Positions 4,175-14,658 of a DNA stretch of 64,000 bases are shown piece by piece. The stretch is from NCBI GenBank assembly GCA_963662465.1, contig OY759599.1, positions 6,368,001-6,432,000 on the forward strand. The letters run 5' to 3'. The translations under genes were made by a program, and so were the position numbers. How positions within the stretch are numbered: position 1 is the stretch's first letter; each line of letters starts with the position of its first letter. The notes under the pieces are model-generated. The model searched no databases. It had not been told where the DNA came from and saw only the letters and a list, made by a program, of their open reading frames with translations. This DNA comes from Desulfatiglandales bacterium (GTDB lineage: Bacteria; Desulfobacterota; DSM-4660; Desulfatiglandales; Desulfatiglandaceae).

Positions 4175-6442
4175 ATGATTGTCAAAACAGAAAAAATTAG
4201 CGACCTATCCATATGGACCGAGCGGGATTGGAAGGAAAAAATCACTGTTACGGTTTATCATGAGTATCGTCCTGTCGTCAGTTTCGATCCTGGGAAGATA
4301 AATGATAGGAGACTCGCTGCCGTACAACTTGTCGAGCTTGGTTATTGTAAAAACCGGGTTGCCGGTAAAATCTGTGGGTTTCACCGCAATACGGTTGGCA
4401 AACTGCTTCGCACCAAAAGACTTTTAGGTGTTGAGGCCATATTTGAGGACAACCGTGGTCCCAAGGCTCCCTGGAAATATATTGGCAGCATTCGCAAAAC
4501 CATCAAAAAACTTATCCGCGAGAATCCTGACTGGACTGACCAGCAGATTGCAAATGCCGCGGAAAAGCAAACTGAAACGACTATTTCGAGAAGTGCTGTA
4601 GCTCGTATCAGAACCGCGGACCAAGATGCAGAAACTGAAAAGCCTACAAAGCATGACTTGGAGCAACTGGCTAAAATTGCGGATAGTATTGATTTGAAGC
4701 AACACGACGAGCGACAGCTTTCTTTCAACTTTGAGGCTGATTCTGAGTTCAAAAAGAAGGTAGATGAATTTGCTGATGAGGATACACCCAAGCCACAAAC
4801 CGATACAGATAAAGTATTCCTGGATTATCTTCAACAGGGACAACGCAATGTCTTTGCCGGCATGCTTCTTCACCATCTGTTTTTAGATCATATCAACTTC
4901 CCAAATGCCTTTGATTTGCCTTCTTATTCCAATAATATGTATGATAATTATGAAGTGATGGAAACTGTCCTTTTCGGGTTGAACATCGGGTTGCCATCTA
5001 TCGAATCCCATAAGCTGGTCAACAGTAGGGACATGGGGCTTTTGCTGGGACGAACCAGTTCCCCCGATGAGACCACTATTCGGTTGCGTTTAAAACAGAT
5101 GGCCGAGTTCAAGCCCTCAGAGAGCCTGATAGATTATTTCGCAAACCTGTTTCTATCGTTGGGGTTCATCAACCCAGAGGTGTTTTTTATCGATGGGCAC
5201 TTCCTTCCCTATTATGGACTGAAAGTTCTATCCAAAGGCTACCATACCGTGAGACGAATTGTCATGAAAGGAAACGAGATTTATGTTGTCAGCGACCTTG
5301 ACGGGAAGCCTTTCTTTTCAATTACCGAAGGGTGTGATATCGATTTCAGGCCGATCATCATAAGAGCGGCCGACAAGATAATCAGCCTGGGTGTCGACCG
5401 CCCCATTGTGGTTTTTGATCGCGGTGGTTATGGTGTTCACTTTTTCAGTCAATTATCGAAAAGGGCTGACTTTATTACGTGGGCCAGGTATGTGAAAAAA
5501 GATGAATTGAAAGACTTGGAATATACGAGCTGCTTGATGTTTAATGGGAAAAGATATCTCATTGCCGAGAAAACAAAACTGATTCGTGAATCGATTTCTA
5601 CAGCTGCCAAAGAAGGCCGAACAGAGGCAACTTCGACAGAAGTACGTATGGTTGTTTTCAAGGAATTGGACAAGGATAGACCTGTGGCAATATATACCAG
5701 CAATCATCAAAAGCCTGCTCCTGATATTGCCGCATATATGCTTTCACGATGGGGAGAGTCTGAAAACTTTTTCAAAGAGATGATGTCCCTGTACAACTTC
5801 AATTATCATCCCGGTTATGATCTTAAAGAACTTGAAGAACAGCCTCTTGTAGATAATCCTGAGGTAAAAACAATCAAAAAAACGATCAAGGGAATTAAAC
5901 AAAAGATGGGGCAATTGGCGCTTGCAAAACAACAAACAGAGTCCAAAATAGAAGCACGAAAAGATCTTCGTCTTAAAAAAAAGCTAAACACGCTCCAGGA
6001 AGAGATAGAGAAATACGACAAAGAGCTTGACGGTTTTCAGGCAGCCTTAAAAGAAATGCCTGACAAAGTATCGATAATTGAAGTGCTGAAAGGCAGACCA
6101 ATGAACAAGGCAGATCTGGAGAAAAAGAAGCTCTACGACCTGATACAAATGATTGCCTTTCACTCACGCGAGCATCTGGTTGGCCTGTTCCGTTCATGTT
6201 ATGATGATCCGCGGGATGTGAAACAGATCCTGACAAAGGTCACAAAACTCCCTGGTTATGTGAAATTAGTCGGGAAAACACTTGTTGTGCTTTTAGATTG
6301 GATAGAGGACAAAAAGCATCGGAAGGCAGCAACAAGATTTTGCCATCTGATAAACACTATGTCGCCCAAATTGAGAGGTCGCATGGAGTTCGACCTTTAT
6401 TTTCGCATCTCCTCAATCCCTCAAGTGGGTTATTGCTGTTAA
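4175..6442 (+). CDS. Large DDE transposase (N-terminal HTH; IS1634/IS4-like catalytic motifs; coiled-coil insertion)
   Basis: FFIDGH, VVFDRGG and RWGESENFFK motifs; single ORF between the TIRs. Confidence 0.8.
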   Translation: MIVKTEKISDLSIWTERDWKEKITVTVYHEYRPVVSFDPGKINDRRLAAVQLVELGYCKNRVAGKICGFHRNTVGKLLRTKRLLGVEAIFEDNRGPKAPWKYIGSIRKTIKKLIRENPDWTDQQIANAAEKQTETTISRSAVARIRTADQDAETEKPTKHDLEQLAKIADSIDLKQHDERQLSFNFEADSEFKKKVDEFADEDTPKPQTDTDKVFLDYLQQGQRNVFAGMLLHHLFLDHINFPNAFDLPSYSNNMYDNYEVMETVLFGLNIGLPSIESHKLVNSRDMGLLLGRTSSPDETTIRLRLKQMAEFKPSESLIDYFANLFLSLGFINPEVFFIDGHFLPYYGLKVLSKGYHTVRRIVMKGNEIYVVSDLDGKPFFSITEGCDIDFRPIIIRAADKIISLGVDRPIVVFDRGGYGVHFFSQLSKRADFITWARYVKKDELKDLEYTSCLMFNGKRYLIAEKTKLIRESISTAAKEGRTEATSTEVRMVVFKELDKDRPVAIYTSNHQKPAPDIAAYMLSRWGESENFFKEMMSLYNFNYHPGYDLKELEEQPLVDNPEVKTIKKTIKGIKQKMGQLALAKQQTESKIEARKDLRLKKKLNTLQEEIEKYDKELDGFQAALKEMPDKVSIIEVLKGRPMNKADLEKKKLYDLIQMIAFHSREHLVGLFRSCYDDPRDVKQILTKVTKLPGYVKLVGKTLVVLLDWIEDKKHRKAATRFCHLINTMSPKLRGRMEFDLYFRISSIPQVGYCC

Positions 6443-6605: not shown

Positions 6606-6786
6606 GTTTGTGCTGAAAGAGAACTTTGAAACTGACAAAGGGATTTATTTCAAGTGTTCCGTGCCCATCAATTCCAGCATCCGCCGAACCTCCAGTTCCC
6701 TCGACGTTTCCAAACCAGGACTCTCGCAAAAGTTCCCGGCATATCTCTTCGAAGCCAACCGGGCTTAATGACCGAAGCGTGCTGAG
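6606..6786 (-). pseudogene. mrr: Mrr-family restriction endonuclease, middle fragment (not in the ORF track)
   Basis: Manual translation LSTLRSLSPVGFEEICRELLRESWFGNVEGTGGSADAGIDGHGTLEINPFVSFKVLFQHK. Confidence 0.85.
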
Positions 6787-7430
6787 GTTGGCTCGTGTTT
6801 ATCCAGCCCTGCATTTCCAGCACGAGTTTCCTTTGTGGGCTATGTCCTTCCGTCAGGTCCTTCCCCTTGTGGCCGGCTTTCCCAACTGCTGACAATGCCT
6901 GATAAGACACCCCGCTGGCATATAGCCGCCTTACGACGACCCACCTGGTTCTTGCCAGGAGCACAACGGGGCTTCCCGAGTTCTACGGCGTATCTCTTCC
7001 TGCATGCCACGGCCTGAGGACTTCGGCGGACCTCCACATCCTCGCCATAAACGGATGCTTCTGTGTTGTCTTCGGTGAACGCTAAAACCCTCGACGTCCG
7101 CAATTGCTATTTCGAAGCTGTACCAGCACTTCAGGGTGCGCAATCACCCCTGCGGCCTACAGGATACTCTGCCTACGCTTAACCCATCTTGTTTGCTGTT
7201 CATGCCGTTAGGTGGGGTGAGTCCATCCACCTATTTGCTCCATCCCTGAAGCGCGCTCGTTTCCAACCGACATGTTTATGCCGATGTCCTACACCTTACA
7301 GGCAGAACAACTTCGCCATGGGTCCAAAGCTCGATACGGGTGGGTAGCTAACCCTTACAGAAAGCCATTACTGGTTTTCCTCCCGACAGGGATTTTCATC
7401 CTGCAAGATACGCCGAGCTTTCCTCGGCGC
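6783..7430 (-). mobile_element. Group II intron A, 5' part only (DI-DIII; RT ORF and DV/DVI deleted)
   Basis: 5' end (TC)GCGCCGAGGAAAGCTCGGCG...GAAAATCCCTGTCGGG and internal GGGAAAGCC...GGGGAAGG elements resemble bacterial group II introns; breaks off into mrr. Confidence 0.7.
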
Positions 7431-7477
7431 GCCGGGTAGCCGGGGGATGTTACCACCCCCGAGCCCCCTCAGAACCA

Positions 7478-7867
7478 CTATATAATGCCCATCAAAACCA
7501 GTTTATAACTCGGGTATATTACCCCTTTCACCCAAGAACCGGTGAAGAAATTTATGTGGTAGGTACCAGAAACCATCGTGGAGAAACTTGTTTTGTAACA
7601 AAGAAACCTGATGGTCGCCATGAATTGATACCTGCGTGGATGACCAATCCAAAGTATGAAAAGATATCCCTCGGCTCAAAACCCGCTATCGAAATCAGGG
7701 CGCTTAAGAATTTATATTGCTTAATAGTGAATAGAAAAATACCGTTTCCTCCTGATGAAGTCAATTCGAAAACAAGGAGGAAAGATGACGAAACAAAAAT
7801 ATCATCAACTTCGGCTTTGGGATTATTTACCATCACCGATCGAAATTCCAAGAGAAACACGAAATAG
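7478..7867 (+). CDS. DUF5372/Y4bD-like accessory ORF lacking a start codon upstream of its conserved motif in the integrated state
   Basis: YPFHP..G...IPAWMT motif; frame is open from the direct repeat and the first possible start (GTG 7556) lies after the YPFHP motif. Confidence 0.65.
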   Translation, partial: LYNAHQNQFITRVYYPFHPRTGEEIYVVGTRNHRGETCFVTKKPDGRHELIPAWMTNPKYEKISLGSKPAIEIRALKNLYCLIVNRKIPFPPDEVNSKTRRKDDETKISSTSALGLFTITDRNSKRNTK

Positions 7868-7946
7868 ATTGATTGATTTCCTTGCAGAGCTTCTGTCAGG
7901 TTTCTGGCAAAATTCTGAGGGTAACAGAAATAGAAAAGAGAAGTAG
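7785..7946 (+). CDS. Small accessory protein of the LSR element
   Basis: AAGGAGG SD; QLRLW...IPRETRNRLIDFLAELL, similar to small ORFs preceding this recombinase type. Confidence 0.55.
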   Translation: MTKQKYHQLRLWDYLPSPIEIPRETRNRLIDFLAELLSGFWQNSEGNRNRKEK

Positions 7947-8145
7947 TTTCACTAACGTAAAATCGCGGTCTGATATTGGAAGCAGTCAAGAGACTGGAGT
8001 TGTTGAAGCAAGCAGCTTAATCCGACTCAGAAAAATCGTAACGATAAATCATAAATAGCTTATTTTCCGATAGAAATAGGTGTTTAACTGAAAAACGTAC
8101 ACGGTATTCAAAAATATTGGACGAATTTGAAGGTGAAAAGGAGCG

Positions 8146-8352
8146 ATGAAAATGAGAGGTGGGAGTCGAAAAGGCGCTGGTCGAAAAAGGAGTCCTGAAC
8201 ATCTGAGGCGTATCCCCGTCACGATTCGGTTACGGAAGTGGATGGTTTCACAGATCAAAATGAAAGGCGAGATAGGGTATTTGATTGAACTCGAATTAGC
8301 GACGAAAAAGGGTTTTCTCGACTTACCAGATGATTATCTGGTCGGAAGCTGA
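8146..8352 (+). CDS. Small basic DNA-binding protein (RHH-like)
   Basis: AAGGAG SD; GGSRKGAGRK...PVTIRLRKW. Confidence 0.55.
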   Translation: MKMRGGSRKGAGRKRSPEHLRRIPVTIRLRKWMVSQIKMKGEIGYLIELELATKKGFLDLPDDYLVGS

Positions 8353-8445
8353 CTAAGGTGCGGTTATGGTCGCTCTTTTAATGGATATTTCGGCAGGAGC
8401 CACCGGAGCCTTCTATGACCTCGTCGCAGCTTACAATTACTCATA

Positions 8446-8490
8446 TGGGGGTCAAAATTCGGTTGTCGCAAGAGGTCAATTTTCGGTTGA
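8446..8490. repeat. IS21-like terminal sequence remnant
   Basis: Tandem GGTCAAAATTCGGTTG / GGTCAATTTTCGGTTG ending in TGACA. Confidence 0.5.
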
Positions 8491-8520
8491 CATTTCGAGA
8501 AAAGAAAGGTGGAAATGAGC

Positions 8521-10602
8521 ATGAGCAATAAAATCAATGCTGAACATATTAGTCGGGAAGCATGTATATATATCCGTCAGTCAACACCGGGCCAAGTTCT
8601 ACAGCATCGTGAAAGCCAACTTTTACAATATGGCTTGGTAGAAAGGGCAAAAGAATTAGGATGGAACGAGAAAAACATATGGATGATAGATAGTGATTTG
8701 GGAATAACTGCATCGGGATGCGTTGACAGAAAAGGATTCCAGAATCTTCTTTCATCTGTGTGTGAAGGAAGAATAGGGGGTATTTTCTCGATTGAATCAT
8801 CGAGGTTGGCCCGCAACGGTCGAGAGTGGCATACGTTGCTTGAGATCTGTGCACTTAAAAAAACGGTTCTTGTAGATCAAGGAGCTGTTTATGACCTAAA
8901 CGTGTCAAATGATCGTTTGCTCCTGGGCTTAAAGGGAGAAATGAGTGCAATGGAATTGAGCCTATTAAAGGAGCGTTCTCAGGCGGCAATACAACAAAAA
9001 GCGAAGCGGGGAGAATTATATCTTACTGTACCGGCAGCCTATATAAAGACTAGGGATAATAAGCTGAAAAAGAATCCTGACAAACGAATTCAAGAAGTCA
9101 TTGATTTGGTATTCACGAAATTCAAGGAATATGGTACTCTTCGTCGGGTGTATCATTGGTTTTTAGATGAACAGATTGAGATTGCTGTTGTTTCCAGCGG
9201 TAAAGGGGAACGTAGGATAGAGTGGAAACTACCGTCTGCTCATACCTTGTCGCATATAGTGAACAACCCAATTTACGCCGGCGCCTACGTCTATGGCCGG
9301 ACTAAAACAGAGGTAACTTTTGAAAATGGGCGCAAGCGACTGAGGAAGGGTATTCGTAAGGAACAAAAGGATTGGGACGTTTTAATATTGGATCACCATG
9401 AAGGTTACATCACATGGGAAGAGTACCAGTATAACATGGAGATACTAACTCAAAATACAAATAAGAAAAGGCCGGTGGTGAGAGGAGCTGTTCGCGGAGG
9501 AAAGGCATTGCTTGGAGGTTTGTTAAGATGCGGTCATTGCGGTAGAAAGTTAATTGTACGATACCAAGGCCGTAATGGAACTCATAAACGTTATGAGTGT
9601 AGCCGCAAACGAGGTAACGAGACAGGAAAGGCGTGTATATCATTTGGTGGATTCCGTGTTGGCCGGGCTGTTACGGATTTTCTTTTGAAAGTATTATCAC
9701 CGATAGGATTAGAAGCTTCTTTAGAGGCGATAAAGAAAATCAACCATGAATCGGATTCAGTGAAACGGCAACGGGAACTGGAGTTGGAACAAGCGCGTTA
9801 TGAAGCTTTACGGGCAAAACGTCAATACAATGCAGTAGACCCTGATAATCGTTTGGTAGCATCTACATTGGAGAAGGATTGGAATGACGCTCTTGTTAAG
9901 GTAGCAAGATTGGAGAATGAGGTTGACGCCATGGGATCGAACACCCCTTCGCTTTCCCCTGAGGAGGAGACTGAGATCAGAGATCTATCAAAAGATTTAC
10001 CTCGTGTATGGAATGATCCGTTTTGCTCTTTGGATTTAAAGAAGCGTATAATCCGGACGGTTATCAAAGAGATCGTTGTTTATTTGGAAGATCAAAAGAT
10101 CAAATTAATCATTCACTGGGAAGGGGGTGAGCATACGGAATTGGAGGTATTGAAGAATAAGTCTTCCAGTTACCCATTGAAAACCGATGTTGATACAAAA
10201 AAGATAATATCCGATTTGGCTAGAATTATGCCTGATAAACACATCGTGGCCTTTCTCAACCGTGTGGGTACAAAGACTACAAAGGGATATACCTGGAATC
10301 CGGTAAGGTTGCGTTCATTTCGAAATAGGCATAATATCCCTGTATATCATGAAGGAGAGAGGCAGCGACGAGAAGAATATACGGTAGCTGAAGCAAGCGA
10401 AAGGCTGGGTATTGGCAGCACCAAAGTTTGGAGACTTATACAACATGAGATTCTACCCGCCAAGCGAGTATGTTCCGGTGCTCCATGGATCATTTCAAAA
10501 AAGGACCTTGAATCTGAAGTGATAAAAAAGGCAGCTCATTCCGGGCTTCCAAAGAGCCCGCTTTCAAGAAACTCAAAACAACAAGTCTTTAATTTTCAAT
10601 AA
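8521..10602 (+). CDS. Large serine recombinase (resolvase, recombinase, Zn ribbon, coiled coil, C-terminal HTH)
   Basis: YIRQST catalytic Ser, SRLARN, NPIYAG, LLRCGHCG, TVAEASERLGIG. Confidence 0.92.
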   Translation: MSNKINAEHISREACIYIRQSTPGQVLQHRESQLLQYGLVERAKELGWNEKNIWMIDSDLGITASGCVDRKGFQNLLSSVCEGRIGGIFSIESSRLARNGREWHTLLEICALKKTVLVDQGAVYDLNVSNDRLLLGLKGEMSAMELSLLKERSQAAIQQKAKRGELYLTVPAAYIKTRDNKLKKNPDKRIQEVIDLVFTKFKEYGTLRRVYHWFLDEQIEIAVVSSGKGERRIEWKLPSAHTLSHIVNNPIYAGAYVYGRTKTEVTFENGRKRLRKGIRKEQKDWDVLILDHHEGYITWEEYQYNMEILTQNTNKKRPVVRGAVRGGKALLGGLLRCGHCGRKLIVRYQGRNGTHKRYECSRKRGNETGKACISFGGFRVGRAVTDFLLKVLSPIGLEASLEAIKKINHESDSVKRQRELELEQARYEALRAKRQYNAVDPDNRLVASTLEKDWNDALVKVARLENEVDAMGSNTPSLSPEEETEIRDLSKDLPRVWNDPFCSLDLKKRIIRTVIKEIVVYLEDQKIKLIIHWEGGEHTELEVLKNKSSSYPLKTDVDTKKIISDLARIMPDKHIVAFLNRVGTKTTKGYTWNPVRLRSFRNRHNIPVYHEGERQRREEYTVAEASERLGIGSTKVWRLIQHEILPAKRVCSGAPWIISKKDLESEVIKKAAHSGLPKSPLSRNSKQQVFNFQ

Positions 10603-11417
10603 CGTACGGAGGTGTGTATTATGCCGCTATTACCCTCAGAACCACGCATGAGACTTTCACCTCACGTGGCTCAAGCCCCCGAAAAGGTTTCCCTGGTTGG
10701 GATTCCCGCGGATTTGCATCTGCTTCACGTTACAAGCCGGCTGTCAGAGTAGCCAAAGGCGCGCGGGGCGCACCAGCCTCAAGGGCCGTCATTCGCCCGT
10801 TTCACTGGCTGCTTTCCCCGCTTTCATCTGATTCCTCCGGTGTTCACGTGATCGGGCACCGCGCTGAACGTCTGCCTCCTTACGGAGCCGGGAATATTTC
10901 ACCCGGTATCCGGACCATTACAGCCCGGCATTCGCTTTTTTCAGCCTCCTACTCCGGCCCGCCAACAGCATGCCTTACGGTTAGCCTGCCCCCAAAGGGG
11001 GCGACGGGACCGGGTTTCCACGTTCCGCATAGTTGATCCTGTGGATGACTTAGGTGCGCCCTGTACGCCGGTGGTACGACAGTTCCGTGCAGGCAGTTAG
11101 CAGACCTGCAACTTGACCACATCCGCTGACACTGGGCAGCGGCATAAGACCTGTTAATCCTCGTAGGCCCTTCGCTTGTAATCGACGCTGTAGACATTCA
11201 GATATCTTCACCATATCATCCGACCCTGGCCCTTAACCGGGGAGGATTCCCGGAGGGGTTCTCCTGTCGCCATTTGAACCCGATTCGGTACGTTGTCCGC
11301 AGGGCTTCACACCCCGTCATCAGCGCAACGGCAGCATGCCTGCGTAGGGTCCGGTAGGAACATGCCGGGTATTATAACTACTTGAATACACTCAAACTAT
11401 GCGACATCGTGTCGCAA

Positions 11418-11444
11418 GAGAACGACAAGCTCACCAGCGCCTCC
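11418..11444 (-). other. Half attC site (R' side only), duplicate of part of the attC at 12025
   Basis: GAGAACGACAAGCTCACCAGCGCCTCC repeats 12026-12054 apart from a 2-nt indel. Confidence 0.6.
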
Positions 11445-12024: not shown

Positions 12025-12112
12025 CGAGAACACGACAAGCTCACCAGCGCCTCCACCGGTCCCCGCCAGGACCGCAGGATTTTCAGGCGTCTGGTGCAAC
12101 GTTTGGTTGGCA
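12025..12112 (-). other. attC site
   Basis: Top strand TGCCAAC...CACCAGACGCCT...AGGCGCTGGTG...GTTCTCG; follows the vapC stop. Confidence 0.75.
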
Positions 12113-12118
12113 TTATTC

Positions 12119-12541
12119 CTACTTCAATAATCGTACAAATCCAGCTTGCTCAAAATGATGATCCGTCGTGAATCCATGACTGAGTTGGCGCTCTTTTATG
12201 ACTACAAAGCTTGAGCAGTCAACCAAACTCCACATTTTATCATCTCGTTCCTTTAGAAATTGCCAAGTTTTATCATCTAACTTCTTGTCAATATGGATGA
12301 TTTCGATCCAATCAACAGCCTTGATTGTCTCAATCGCTTGGATTTGCTTCGGACGTGGTATTCTGAGCGGACTTATGAACAAAGCGACAAGCTCCGAAAG
12401 AATATAATTTGTTGTGATGACACGGATTTGATCTTTATACCATTGCTGCATCAACCCCTTGGCATCTTGATGAAACGGCTCAGTTCGGACAAAATAATTG
12501 GCCCAACCGGAAGTATCAGCGAAAATCTCATTCATGTGCAT
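12119..12541 (-). CDS. vapC: PIN-domain VapC toxin
   Basis: IFADTSGW, TTNYILSE, SLVDCSSF, TTDHHFEQAGF. Confidence 0.9.
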   Translation of the reverse strand: MHMNEIFADTSGWANYFVRTEPFHQDAKGLMQQWYKDQIRVITTNYILSELVALFISPLRIPRPKQIQAIETIKAVDWIEIIHIDKKLDDKTWQFLKERDDKMWSLVDCSSFVVIKERQLSHGFTTDHHFEQAGFVRLLK

Positions 12542-14246: not shown

Positions 14247-14658
14247 GTGTGCCGGGCACGGCACGTGTTCTTAAGGATGCGCCTAATATATCATAGTTCC
14301 GATATGTTAGGCAAGTCCCAGACCCAGCCAGGTAGTGGCGAAGGGTATAGCGGTATCACAACCGGGTATCCGGTAACGGTGCCTGGGAAGGCAGTGACCT
14401 TGCTTCGGCAGGGTACCGCGAACGCACGGGGCGACAACAGAAATCGGGTTAGGCGGGTCTGGTGGGACGAGTCCGTAACACAGGACAAAGTCCTAATATG
14501 GGAGTAGCTGAAAGGTCGATAACGTCGCATTCTGGAAAACCCGGTAGGGCGGAACCTGTTTTATCCGTGCCTGCGCTGACCAGCCGAATCGTCGTATACG
14601 GACCCATATGTACGGTGGTGTGGGAGGGGGGAGCTGTGAGGCTCCTCCCTATCCCTAT
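14247..14658 (+). mobile_element. ORF-less group IIC (attC-targeting) intron C, 412 nt
   Basis: 5' GTGTGCCGGGCACGGC after TTGTT; IIC-type DV GAATCGTCGTATACGGACCCATATGTACGGTGGTG; DVI ending CTATCCCTAT. Confidence 0.8.

Follow-up and report, generated by a model that had tools for sequence, protein, structure and literature searches.

The window, as we call the whole 64-kb stretch of DNA analysed here, contains exactly two occurrences of the 13-mer CCCTCAGAACCAC (minus-strand form GTGGTTCTGAGGG), at positions 7466–7478 and 10633–10645; two or more matches were found in none of 100 dinucleotide-preserving shuffles of the window. Between them lies the body of an element of 3154 bp (7479–10632, plus strand; 3167 bp including one core copy), delimited from seven copies in this genome, which carries a large serine recombinase (LSR) gene at 8509–10602 (plus strand; Pfam and PHROG). 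From repeat search and junction reading, we refer to the left-hand 13-bp copy as attL and to the right-hand copy as attR.

On the minus strand, attR is joined to the 5′ part of a group II intron, here called intron A, which spans domains I–V up to the att core (10633–11417; RF02012, RF00029 and an alignment of eight copies). The Rfam D1–D4 model RF02012 matches at 11369–11229 (71.7 bits against a gathering score of 34), the domain V/domain VI (DV/DVI) model RF00029 at 10674–10604 (45.8 bits against a gathering score of 40) and the DV-only model RF04357 at 10639–10672, all on the minus strand. The initial annotation had taken the duplicated 13-mer for the 3′ strand of DV plus the DV–DVI linker, with DV itself intact and with DVI and the 3′ splice site moved 3.2 kb away, and our data agree with it on each of these points. 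Both the RF04357 match and folding give an intact DV hairpin at 10639–10672, with the catalytic AGC present. The 13-mer is made up of the 7 nt that close the DV 3′ strand and of UGAGGG, and so covers the end of DV, J5/6 and the initial G's of DVI. The genuine DVI hairpin, with its bulged A, occupies 7465–7431 (minus strand) together with the 3′ end of the intron, 3.17 kb from DV, as placed by alignment to the other genome copies and by folding of the in-silico excised site. The ‘DVI’ that forms part of the RF00029 match (10604–10636) is spurious and consists of element sequence; interrupted copies score 45.3–45.8 bits and uninterrupted ones 52.6–67.5 bits.

In addition to the recombinase gene and a split gene described below, the element has two small plus-strand ORFs that are open in all seven copies. 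One encodes 68 aa with a basic N-terminus (8146–8352) and has no Pfam or NCBIfam family and one weak PHROG match of unknown function; the other encodes 63 aa, overlaps the end of the split gene (7755–7946) and gave no family match in Pfam, NCBIfam and PHROG searches. Domain searches found no transposase within the element.

The large serine recombinase

The LSR gene is antisense to the intron and its frame is intact in six of the seven copies. It encodes 697 aa from a GTG at 8509, while an ATG at 8515 agrees better with the N-termini of homologues. Pfam places a Resolvase domain (PF00239) at residues 19–169 (E 7.2e-19), a Recombinase domain (PF07508) at residues 195–315 (E 4.8e-13) and a Zn_ribbon_recom domain (PF13408) at residues 334–377 (E 7.8e-07). 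The Y-x-R-x-S-T motif with the serine nucleophile reads at residues 21–26, and a coiled coil is judged from sequence to span approximately residues 410–480. The protein matches PHROG 95, ‘integrase’, with an E-value of 1.9e-54; its best NCBIfam match is XisF (111.5 bits, far under the cut-off of 375), and its only sequence match in the PDB is a 169-aa catalytic-domain fragment (E 3e-4). At the C-terminus lies a helix-turn-helix (HTH) domain of the excisionase family (HTH_17, PF12728, residues 624–668; TIGR01764 below cut-off), which is conserved among close homologues. Such an excisionase-type HTH is an unusual addition to a serine integrase, and it might contribute to site recognition or directionality.

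Host intron A and its surroundings

Once the insert is removed, intron A is approximately 820 nt long and ORF-less. A search with positions 10633–11420 returned eight near-full genome copies of 94–100% identity, and their alignment puts the 5′ end of the intron at approximately 11417, beginning TTGCGAC. On the other side of the element, the 48-nt stretch 7478–7431 has matches at nine further genome positions, in two of which (3334730–3334806 and 448698–448774) it directly adjoins DV; it is therefore DVI and the 3′ end of the same intron. Beyond 7431 the flanks diverge in all copies. Indeed, the site excised in silico folds (ViennaRNA) into a DV hairpin and a DVI hairpin with the bulged A six bases before the end. 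We found no intron-encoded reverse transcriptase, and no ORF with a family match, in the approximately 820 nt of intron A, and intron A would thus be an ORF-less member that relies on protein supplied in trans.

The 5′ exon of intron A is, in six of the eight copies, a conserved repeat of the type ..GGCGCTGGTGAGCTTGTCGTT.., and in the window this 21-nt repeat is found at 11421–11441 (minus strand) and again, with one mismatch, at 12031–12051 (minus strand). The repeat comes after two small minus-strand genes, a 131-aa ORF and a PIN-domain toxin-like gene (12119–12541), and intron A is inserted a few bases past its ..GTCGTT motif. Intron A is thus flanked by a cassette-like short repeat after a small gene on one side and by a second intron on the other; it lies outside coding sequence, and no host reading frame is interrupted by it at this locus.

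The second group II intron (6640–7430, minus strand; RF02005 D1D4-6 match at 7241–7011) begins with the base that follows intron A's 3′ end (7431/7430). Other copies match it only as far as approximately query position 511–696, and a 755-aa Transposase_29/HTH_32 gene lies downstream at 4175–6442 (plus strand), so that the second intron appears to have been truncated by an IS. The same tandem arrangement of one intron inserted after another is seen elsewhere in the genome, at 3333905–3333981/3333981. A weak RF00029 match at 14587–14658 of the window (plus strand; 27.8 bits, below cut-off), of the AATCG.CGTATACGG family, may be the remnant of a further intron.

Copies of the element and occupancy of its target in the genome

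The seven copies of the element in this genome are 98.8–99.8% alike, with 6–37 mismatches per 3154 bp, and we read the flanks of all of them (14 junctions). Five copies sit at the identical point of copies of intron A, each with a different 3′ exon. Counting both intron families concerned, six of the seven have a DV match at the right (DV) side, while the seventh has an intron DVI at the left side only.

The most informative copy is c4984, whose host belongs to another intron family with a DV ending ..CGTCTACGGTTCTGAGG. Here attR reads ..CCCTCAGAACCgt, on the intron side, and attL reads ..CCCTCAGAACCac, on the element side: attR consists of CCCTCAGAACC followed by the intron's GT, and attL of the same 11 bp followed by the element's AC, giving the termini ..AACCGT on the intron side and ..AACCAC on the element side. 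Since attL and attR differ in this way, the junctions show a conservative attP × attB exchange within the shared 11 bp and exclude a target-site duplication. They also limit the crossover to CCCTCAGAACC. Further hints come from the left junction of copy c6823 (CAG) and from two homologous loci in other genomes, L028 (common sequence CACAGA) and L034 (common CCCCA, just to the left). The crossover dinucleotides that these four sites suggest are not fully consistent, and neither L034, whose left end is the contig start, nor the irregular c6823 is reliable for placing the crossover. From the junctions taken together, we infer that the crossover lies at or within two bases of the DV/J5-6 boundary. 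Inspection of attP and attB by eye gave no clear dyad symmetry.

Two copies, c6823 and c3315, have special features. In the irregular c6823, attL is the DVI of a third intron type and attR adjoins a repeat of approximately 963 bp that has no DV; its attR has no dinucleotide in common with its attL. This right-flank repeat (6826403–6827370) occurs in more than 20 copies in the genome, including eight head-to-tail units with a 1609-bp period at 4413001–4425229. Copy c3315 is split by an insert of 2850 bp (3315896–3318745) that breaks its LSR gene; a full copy of this insert, 99.9% identical, lies at 2503313–2506162, and the insert forms a third layer of nesting.

In the whole genome there are 52 RF00029 DV matches. 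Six of the nine DV sites within two mismatches of the 13-mer are occupied, as against 0 of the 43 with three or more mismatches. The suggestion that DV serves as a widespread attB therefore holds in part: it is the DV/DVI junction that is used, in six of the seven copies and at homologue junctions that carry DV or DVI, but the occupied sites are confined to DVs that closely resemble the core, and DV in general is not the target. Empty intron A sites are present at 3334730, 3354006 and 448698. Every empty near-match differs from the occupied sites in or just past the core (448698 reads CTGAAGGG where occupied sites read CTGAGGG), so the half-site on the DVI side seems to matter too.

We also observed mixed DV/DVI combinations, at 3354006–3354082, 4984107–4987350 and 3307323–3307399, in which an intron A DV is found with a different DVI, or in which a second-family DV faces an A-like DVI on the far side of the element. 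If copies of the element in different introns recombined and were then excised, the 3′ ends of introns could be reshuffled.

Relatives in other genomes and metagenomes

Among 209 genomes of the same order, we found no close LSR homologue outside this genome (best 43% identity), so the spread of the clade has to be read from short metagenome contigs. Outside this genome, 12 loci on genome and metagenome contigs, mostly of 2.3–3.8 kb, encode an LSR that is 70–84% identical. The element ends are conserved in these homologues: the right end is a ribosome-binding site plus ATG and is nearly invariant, and the left end reads ..ATAATGCCCATCAA...

The right junction is readable in six homologues, and DV or DV-like sequence adjoins it in four. 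In L023 and L034, DV lies directly at the element end (RF00029, 46.3 and 46.8 bits, respectively). L028 has a clear hairpin and matches to the DV-only model (38.1 bits) and to RF00029 (32.4 bits) that are both below cut-off, and L031 has a 21-nt flank similar to that of L028. The other two are not at DV. In L029, the right junction lies approximately 200 nt beyond a D1D4-6 match and has no DV match; its flank has no similarity to the second intron of the window, and only 94 nt at 73% to the more distant locus L055. In L032, the right junction gave no intron signal. Thus, comparison of the homologues' insertion sites with Rfam, which the initial annotation had named as the check on DV as a target, favours DV at four of six junctions and leaves two elsewhere. 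Of the four readable left junctions, those of L022 and L033 clearly have a DVI-like hairpin with its bulged A, that of L024 plausibly has one and that of L028 is unclear.

The att cores differ among the homologues, each matching the local intron. As to whether the 13-mer is constant or varies with the target, the answer depends on the level of comparison: within this genome it behaves as a constant attP core, as c4984 demonstrates, and among homologues it differs along with the local intron.

Loci with more distant LSRs served as a control, and none of 16 metagenome loci with LSRs of 33–40% identity had any intron match. At nine same-order loci with LSR homologues of 33–43% identity, D1–D4 matches were found nearby in three and DV in none. 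The loci L054, L055 and L057 (LSRs 35–41% identical) have a group II D1–D4 match within approximately 1 kb, on the opposite strand in L055, and no DV match; relatives this remote may insert at different positions within introns, or introns may simply be abundant in these genomes. A search for conserved element-end motifs in 25 distant-homologue loci gave nothing convincing.

A gene split between the two ends of the element

The right end of the element carries the head of a gene (10608–10632, plus strand), in which sequence reading gives GGAGG at 10608–10612, an ATG at 10621 and three more codons before the frame enters the core. The DUF5372-like body of the gene lies at the other end (7466–7867, plus strand) and comes into frame with the head only upon joining of the two ends. 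The joined ends give a 137-aa ORF that is open in all seven copies, and the gene is also open across the joined ends in L028, L034 and L021 (133–137 aa). When the element is integrated, the frame of the head runs into DV and ends at a stop after 46 codons, while that of the body is closed by a stop 36 codons upstream of the junction. Among 14 protein-database homologues of the split gene, 9 (11 with two weaker cases; by-eye reading) have an N-terminal extension that is the translated complement of a DVI, an independent line of support for insertion next to DVI.

The split-gene product matches DUF5372 (PF17342) with an E-value of 4.7e-4 and 20.6 bits, below the cut-off of 25, and its nearest Atlas clusters have DUF5372 in 12–61% of their members. 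It has 19 homologues, on short contigs, and the only family matches in this genome are the seven element copies. An AlphaFold model has a mean pLDDT of 60.5 and a beta core at residues 10–60. Foldseek against the PDB gave nothing at E ≤ 0.001, the best hit being Tudor/SH3-like at E approximately 0.09, and neither sequence nor fold searches detected similarity to known recombination directionality factors (RDFs).

When the split-gene product was modelled together with LSR residues 170–697, the complex scored 0.69 and the best control 0.00; 116 of 157 solved complexes attain this mark, as do 2 of 215 mismatched pairs, counts that are only rough, with own alignments used. At least 62% of contacts are common to the runs, and the pLDDT of the partner is at least 60. 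On the LSR, the predicted interface comprises residues 337–345 in the zinc ribbon, 395–408, and 480–544 after the coiled coil. Known directionality factors bind serine integrases at the zinc-ribbon/coiled-coil region. The DUF5372-like product is thus predicted to bind the LSR at that region, and given the correspondence between the predicted interface and the known binding region of RDFs, we read it as a putative accessory or directionality factor specific to the circle, which might act in favour of integration, against re-excision or as a trigger for the excision of sibling copies.

Interpretation of the element and of its spread

The element in the window is very probably an integrated LSR element of 3.17 kb, with the LSR as its sole recombinase and with the DNA for the end of DV, J5/6 and the start of DVI of group II introns as its attB. 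The use of this target is shown for two or three intron lineages in this genome and for others elsewhere. In mechanistic terms, attB would be the double-stranded DNA that runs from the terminal part of the DV 3′ strand through J5/6 into the beginning of DVI, and attP would hold the same 13 bp. The LSR would pair attP on the excised circle with attB, cut a central dinucleotide that lies in the shared 11 bp, at the DV/J5-6 boundary or beside it, rotate the ends and religate them. Integration would leave the element antisense to the intron and cut the ribozyme core off from DVI and from the 3′ splice site; the intron should thereby be inactivated, and excision would bring it back exactly. Since the ribosome-binding site and start codon of the DUF5372-like gene belong to one end of the element and its body to the opposite end, the gene would be whole only on the circle. 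A target that is conserved and multicopy, and whose use comes at no host cost, would provide many safe landing sites.

A single entry into one intron could also have produced the seven copies without the LSR choosing DV each time, if the composite intron then travelled as one piece, by retromobility or cassette movement, or if gene conversion carried the insert over into empty introns. The four occupied intron A copies of one cluster are mutual closest relatives (11–20 mismatches among them against 26–38 to the empty copies), approximately 785 nt of intron homology flanks one side of the element, and the element variants are mosaic among copies, which means that the copies recombine. The mosaic variants and the clustering of the occupied introns suggest that homology-driven copying may have contributed within this cluster. 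As an account of all the copies it is improbable, however, because the 3′ exons are different in all of them and because the divergence of the elements does not follow that of their hosts. Pairs of occupied host introns differ by 1.4–3.9% (mean 2.56%) and their elements by 0.22–1.17% (mean 0.69%), so that the elements are approximately four times less diverged, and the two divergences are uncorrelated (r = −0.36, 10 pairs). The element of c4984 is only 6 mismatches away from that of the window, even though its host intron is only 67–87% identical to intron A in the aligned parts, and the change from element to intron sequence falls inside the core; near-identity of the element in so divergent a host argues for repeated integration. 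Homologues elsewhere also sit at the same point of unrelated DVs, with matching and therefore different cores, and reverse-splicing of an RNA with 3.2 kb between DV and DVI would be unlikely.

Four public sequencing runs, searched as assembled contigs only, contained no circle junction (attP) and no empty site specific to the window locus. Four contigs, three in run X1 and one in X7, join DVI to DV and skip 3166–3181 nt, with a shorter side of only 29–33 nt; we rejected them as evidence for excision of the window copy, and they may represent empty paralogous introns. X7, a metatranscriptome run, also holds contigs of the element, which are uninformative on transcription.

The initial annotation had further proposed that excision restores a spliceable intron and that splicing is thereby gated by the recombinase. 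The first half is compatible with our folding results: in-silico excision yields the canonical DV–J5/6–DVI arrangement, with a fold energy of −40.3 kcal/mol against −21.6 for the occupied state. A reversible switch, in which excision by the LSR gates splicing, the expression of flanking genes or intron mobility to the benefit of host or intron, could build on this restoration, on the conservative nature of recombination of the LSR type and on the existence of both occupied and empty copies. Several observations nevertheless make such a switch highly improbable. Intron A is ORF-less, lies between a short repeat and the IS-cut second intron, and interrupts no host frame; the presence of seven nearly identical copies in different introns is suggestive of selfish spread; we found no regulatory link to a host signal; and no excision product specific to the window locus was present among the contigs of the public runs. 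Gating of splicing as a function of the element is therefore not borne out, the element being multicopy and near-identical between sites and its intron host lying outside any host gene. In our data it behaves like a recently spreading selfish element.

Lastly, the notion that the 13-bp repeat is a transposase target-site duplication or a chance repeat, with the LSR gene as unrelated cargo, has a negligible likelihood: direct repeats do flank the insert, but the element is without a transposase, the two repeat copies of c4984 differ as attL and attR should and as the copies of a duplication would not, the element ends are conserved along with the LSR across the 70–84% homologues, and chance is excluded by the shuffled windows.

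Comparison with known systems and implications

Tn4451/Tn4453 (TnpX) and Tn5397 (TndX) are clostridial transposons moved by large serine recombinases. The integrated LSR element described here resembles them in being small, in having the LSR as its sole recombinase and, as far as its mechanism can be read from the junctions, in excision as a circle and reinsertion without target duplication, the comparison at the sequence level resting on the shared Pfam domains. The joint of the circle rebuilds the tnpX promoter in the clostridial transposons and would rebuild the coding sequence of an accessory protein in the window element; the former use loosely defined sites and the latter the defined, structured DV/DVI. 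Unlike the clostridial transposons, the window element has no resistance cargo, and its LSR has a C-terminal excisionase-type HTH.

Phage-type serine integrases and their RDFs form pairs such as phiC31/gp3, Bxb1/gp47 and SPbeta SprA/SprB. With these the window element shares the Resolvase–Recombinase–zinc-ribbon layout, a short core common to attP and attB and a small partner at the zinc-ribbon/coiled-coil region, which for the window element is predicted only. It differs from them in not being a phage, in having a multicopy attB that lies inside another mobile element, and in that its partner gene straddles the att site and would be whole only after excision.

The fdxN element with XisF, the skin element and SPbeta in spsM are comparable in that precise excision by an LSR restores an interrupted sequence. 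They are single-copy and host-regulated and restore a host gene, whereas the window element is present in seven copies, interrupts a selfish ribozyme and shows no link to host development. Twintrons and IStrons, too, are mobile elements housed in another such element, which spares the host genes; what sets the window element apart from them is a DNA recombinase that targets the DNA of the most conserved ribozyme hairpins, with an att core that varies with the intron lineage. We found no description of an LSR integrating into DV/DVI in the full-text literature, with subscription journals and supplements outside its scope, and no paper on DUF5372 in the full-text literature, again with subscription journals outside its scope; a candidate paper on phage WO proved unrelated. 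We class the window element among serine-integrase elements, as one whose class of target is new and whose accessory gene is split.

A more far-reaching proposition is that one clade of serine recombinases has become specialised for DNA that encodes the catalytic core of group II introns, that att cores in this clade co-vary with intron lineages, giving natural matched attP/attB pairs, and that an accessory gene found intact only on the circle sets directionality. We hold this to be doubtful in its full form. If it were true, a single excision could yield a trans-acting factor for the six sibling copies, with either a burst of excision or a block to re-excision as the outcome, and the whole intron population of a cell could be switched off and on by DNA recombination.

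At the level of the family, the DUF5372-like product provides a candidate accessory protein for a protein family of unknown function, and the related integrases, with readable and differing attP/attB pairs, form a natural series that is of interest for integrase engineering. For the biology of the element itself, our data point to a DNA recombinase element that lives on the ribozyme core of a retroelement, a site that is conserved, has many copies, is spread horizontally and can be occupied without harm to the host. Such a way of life would widen the known range of serine-integrase targets and add a further layer to the conflicts between mobile elements.
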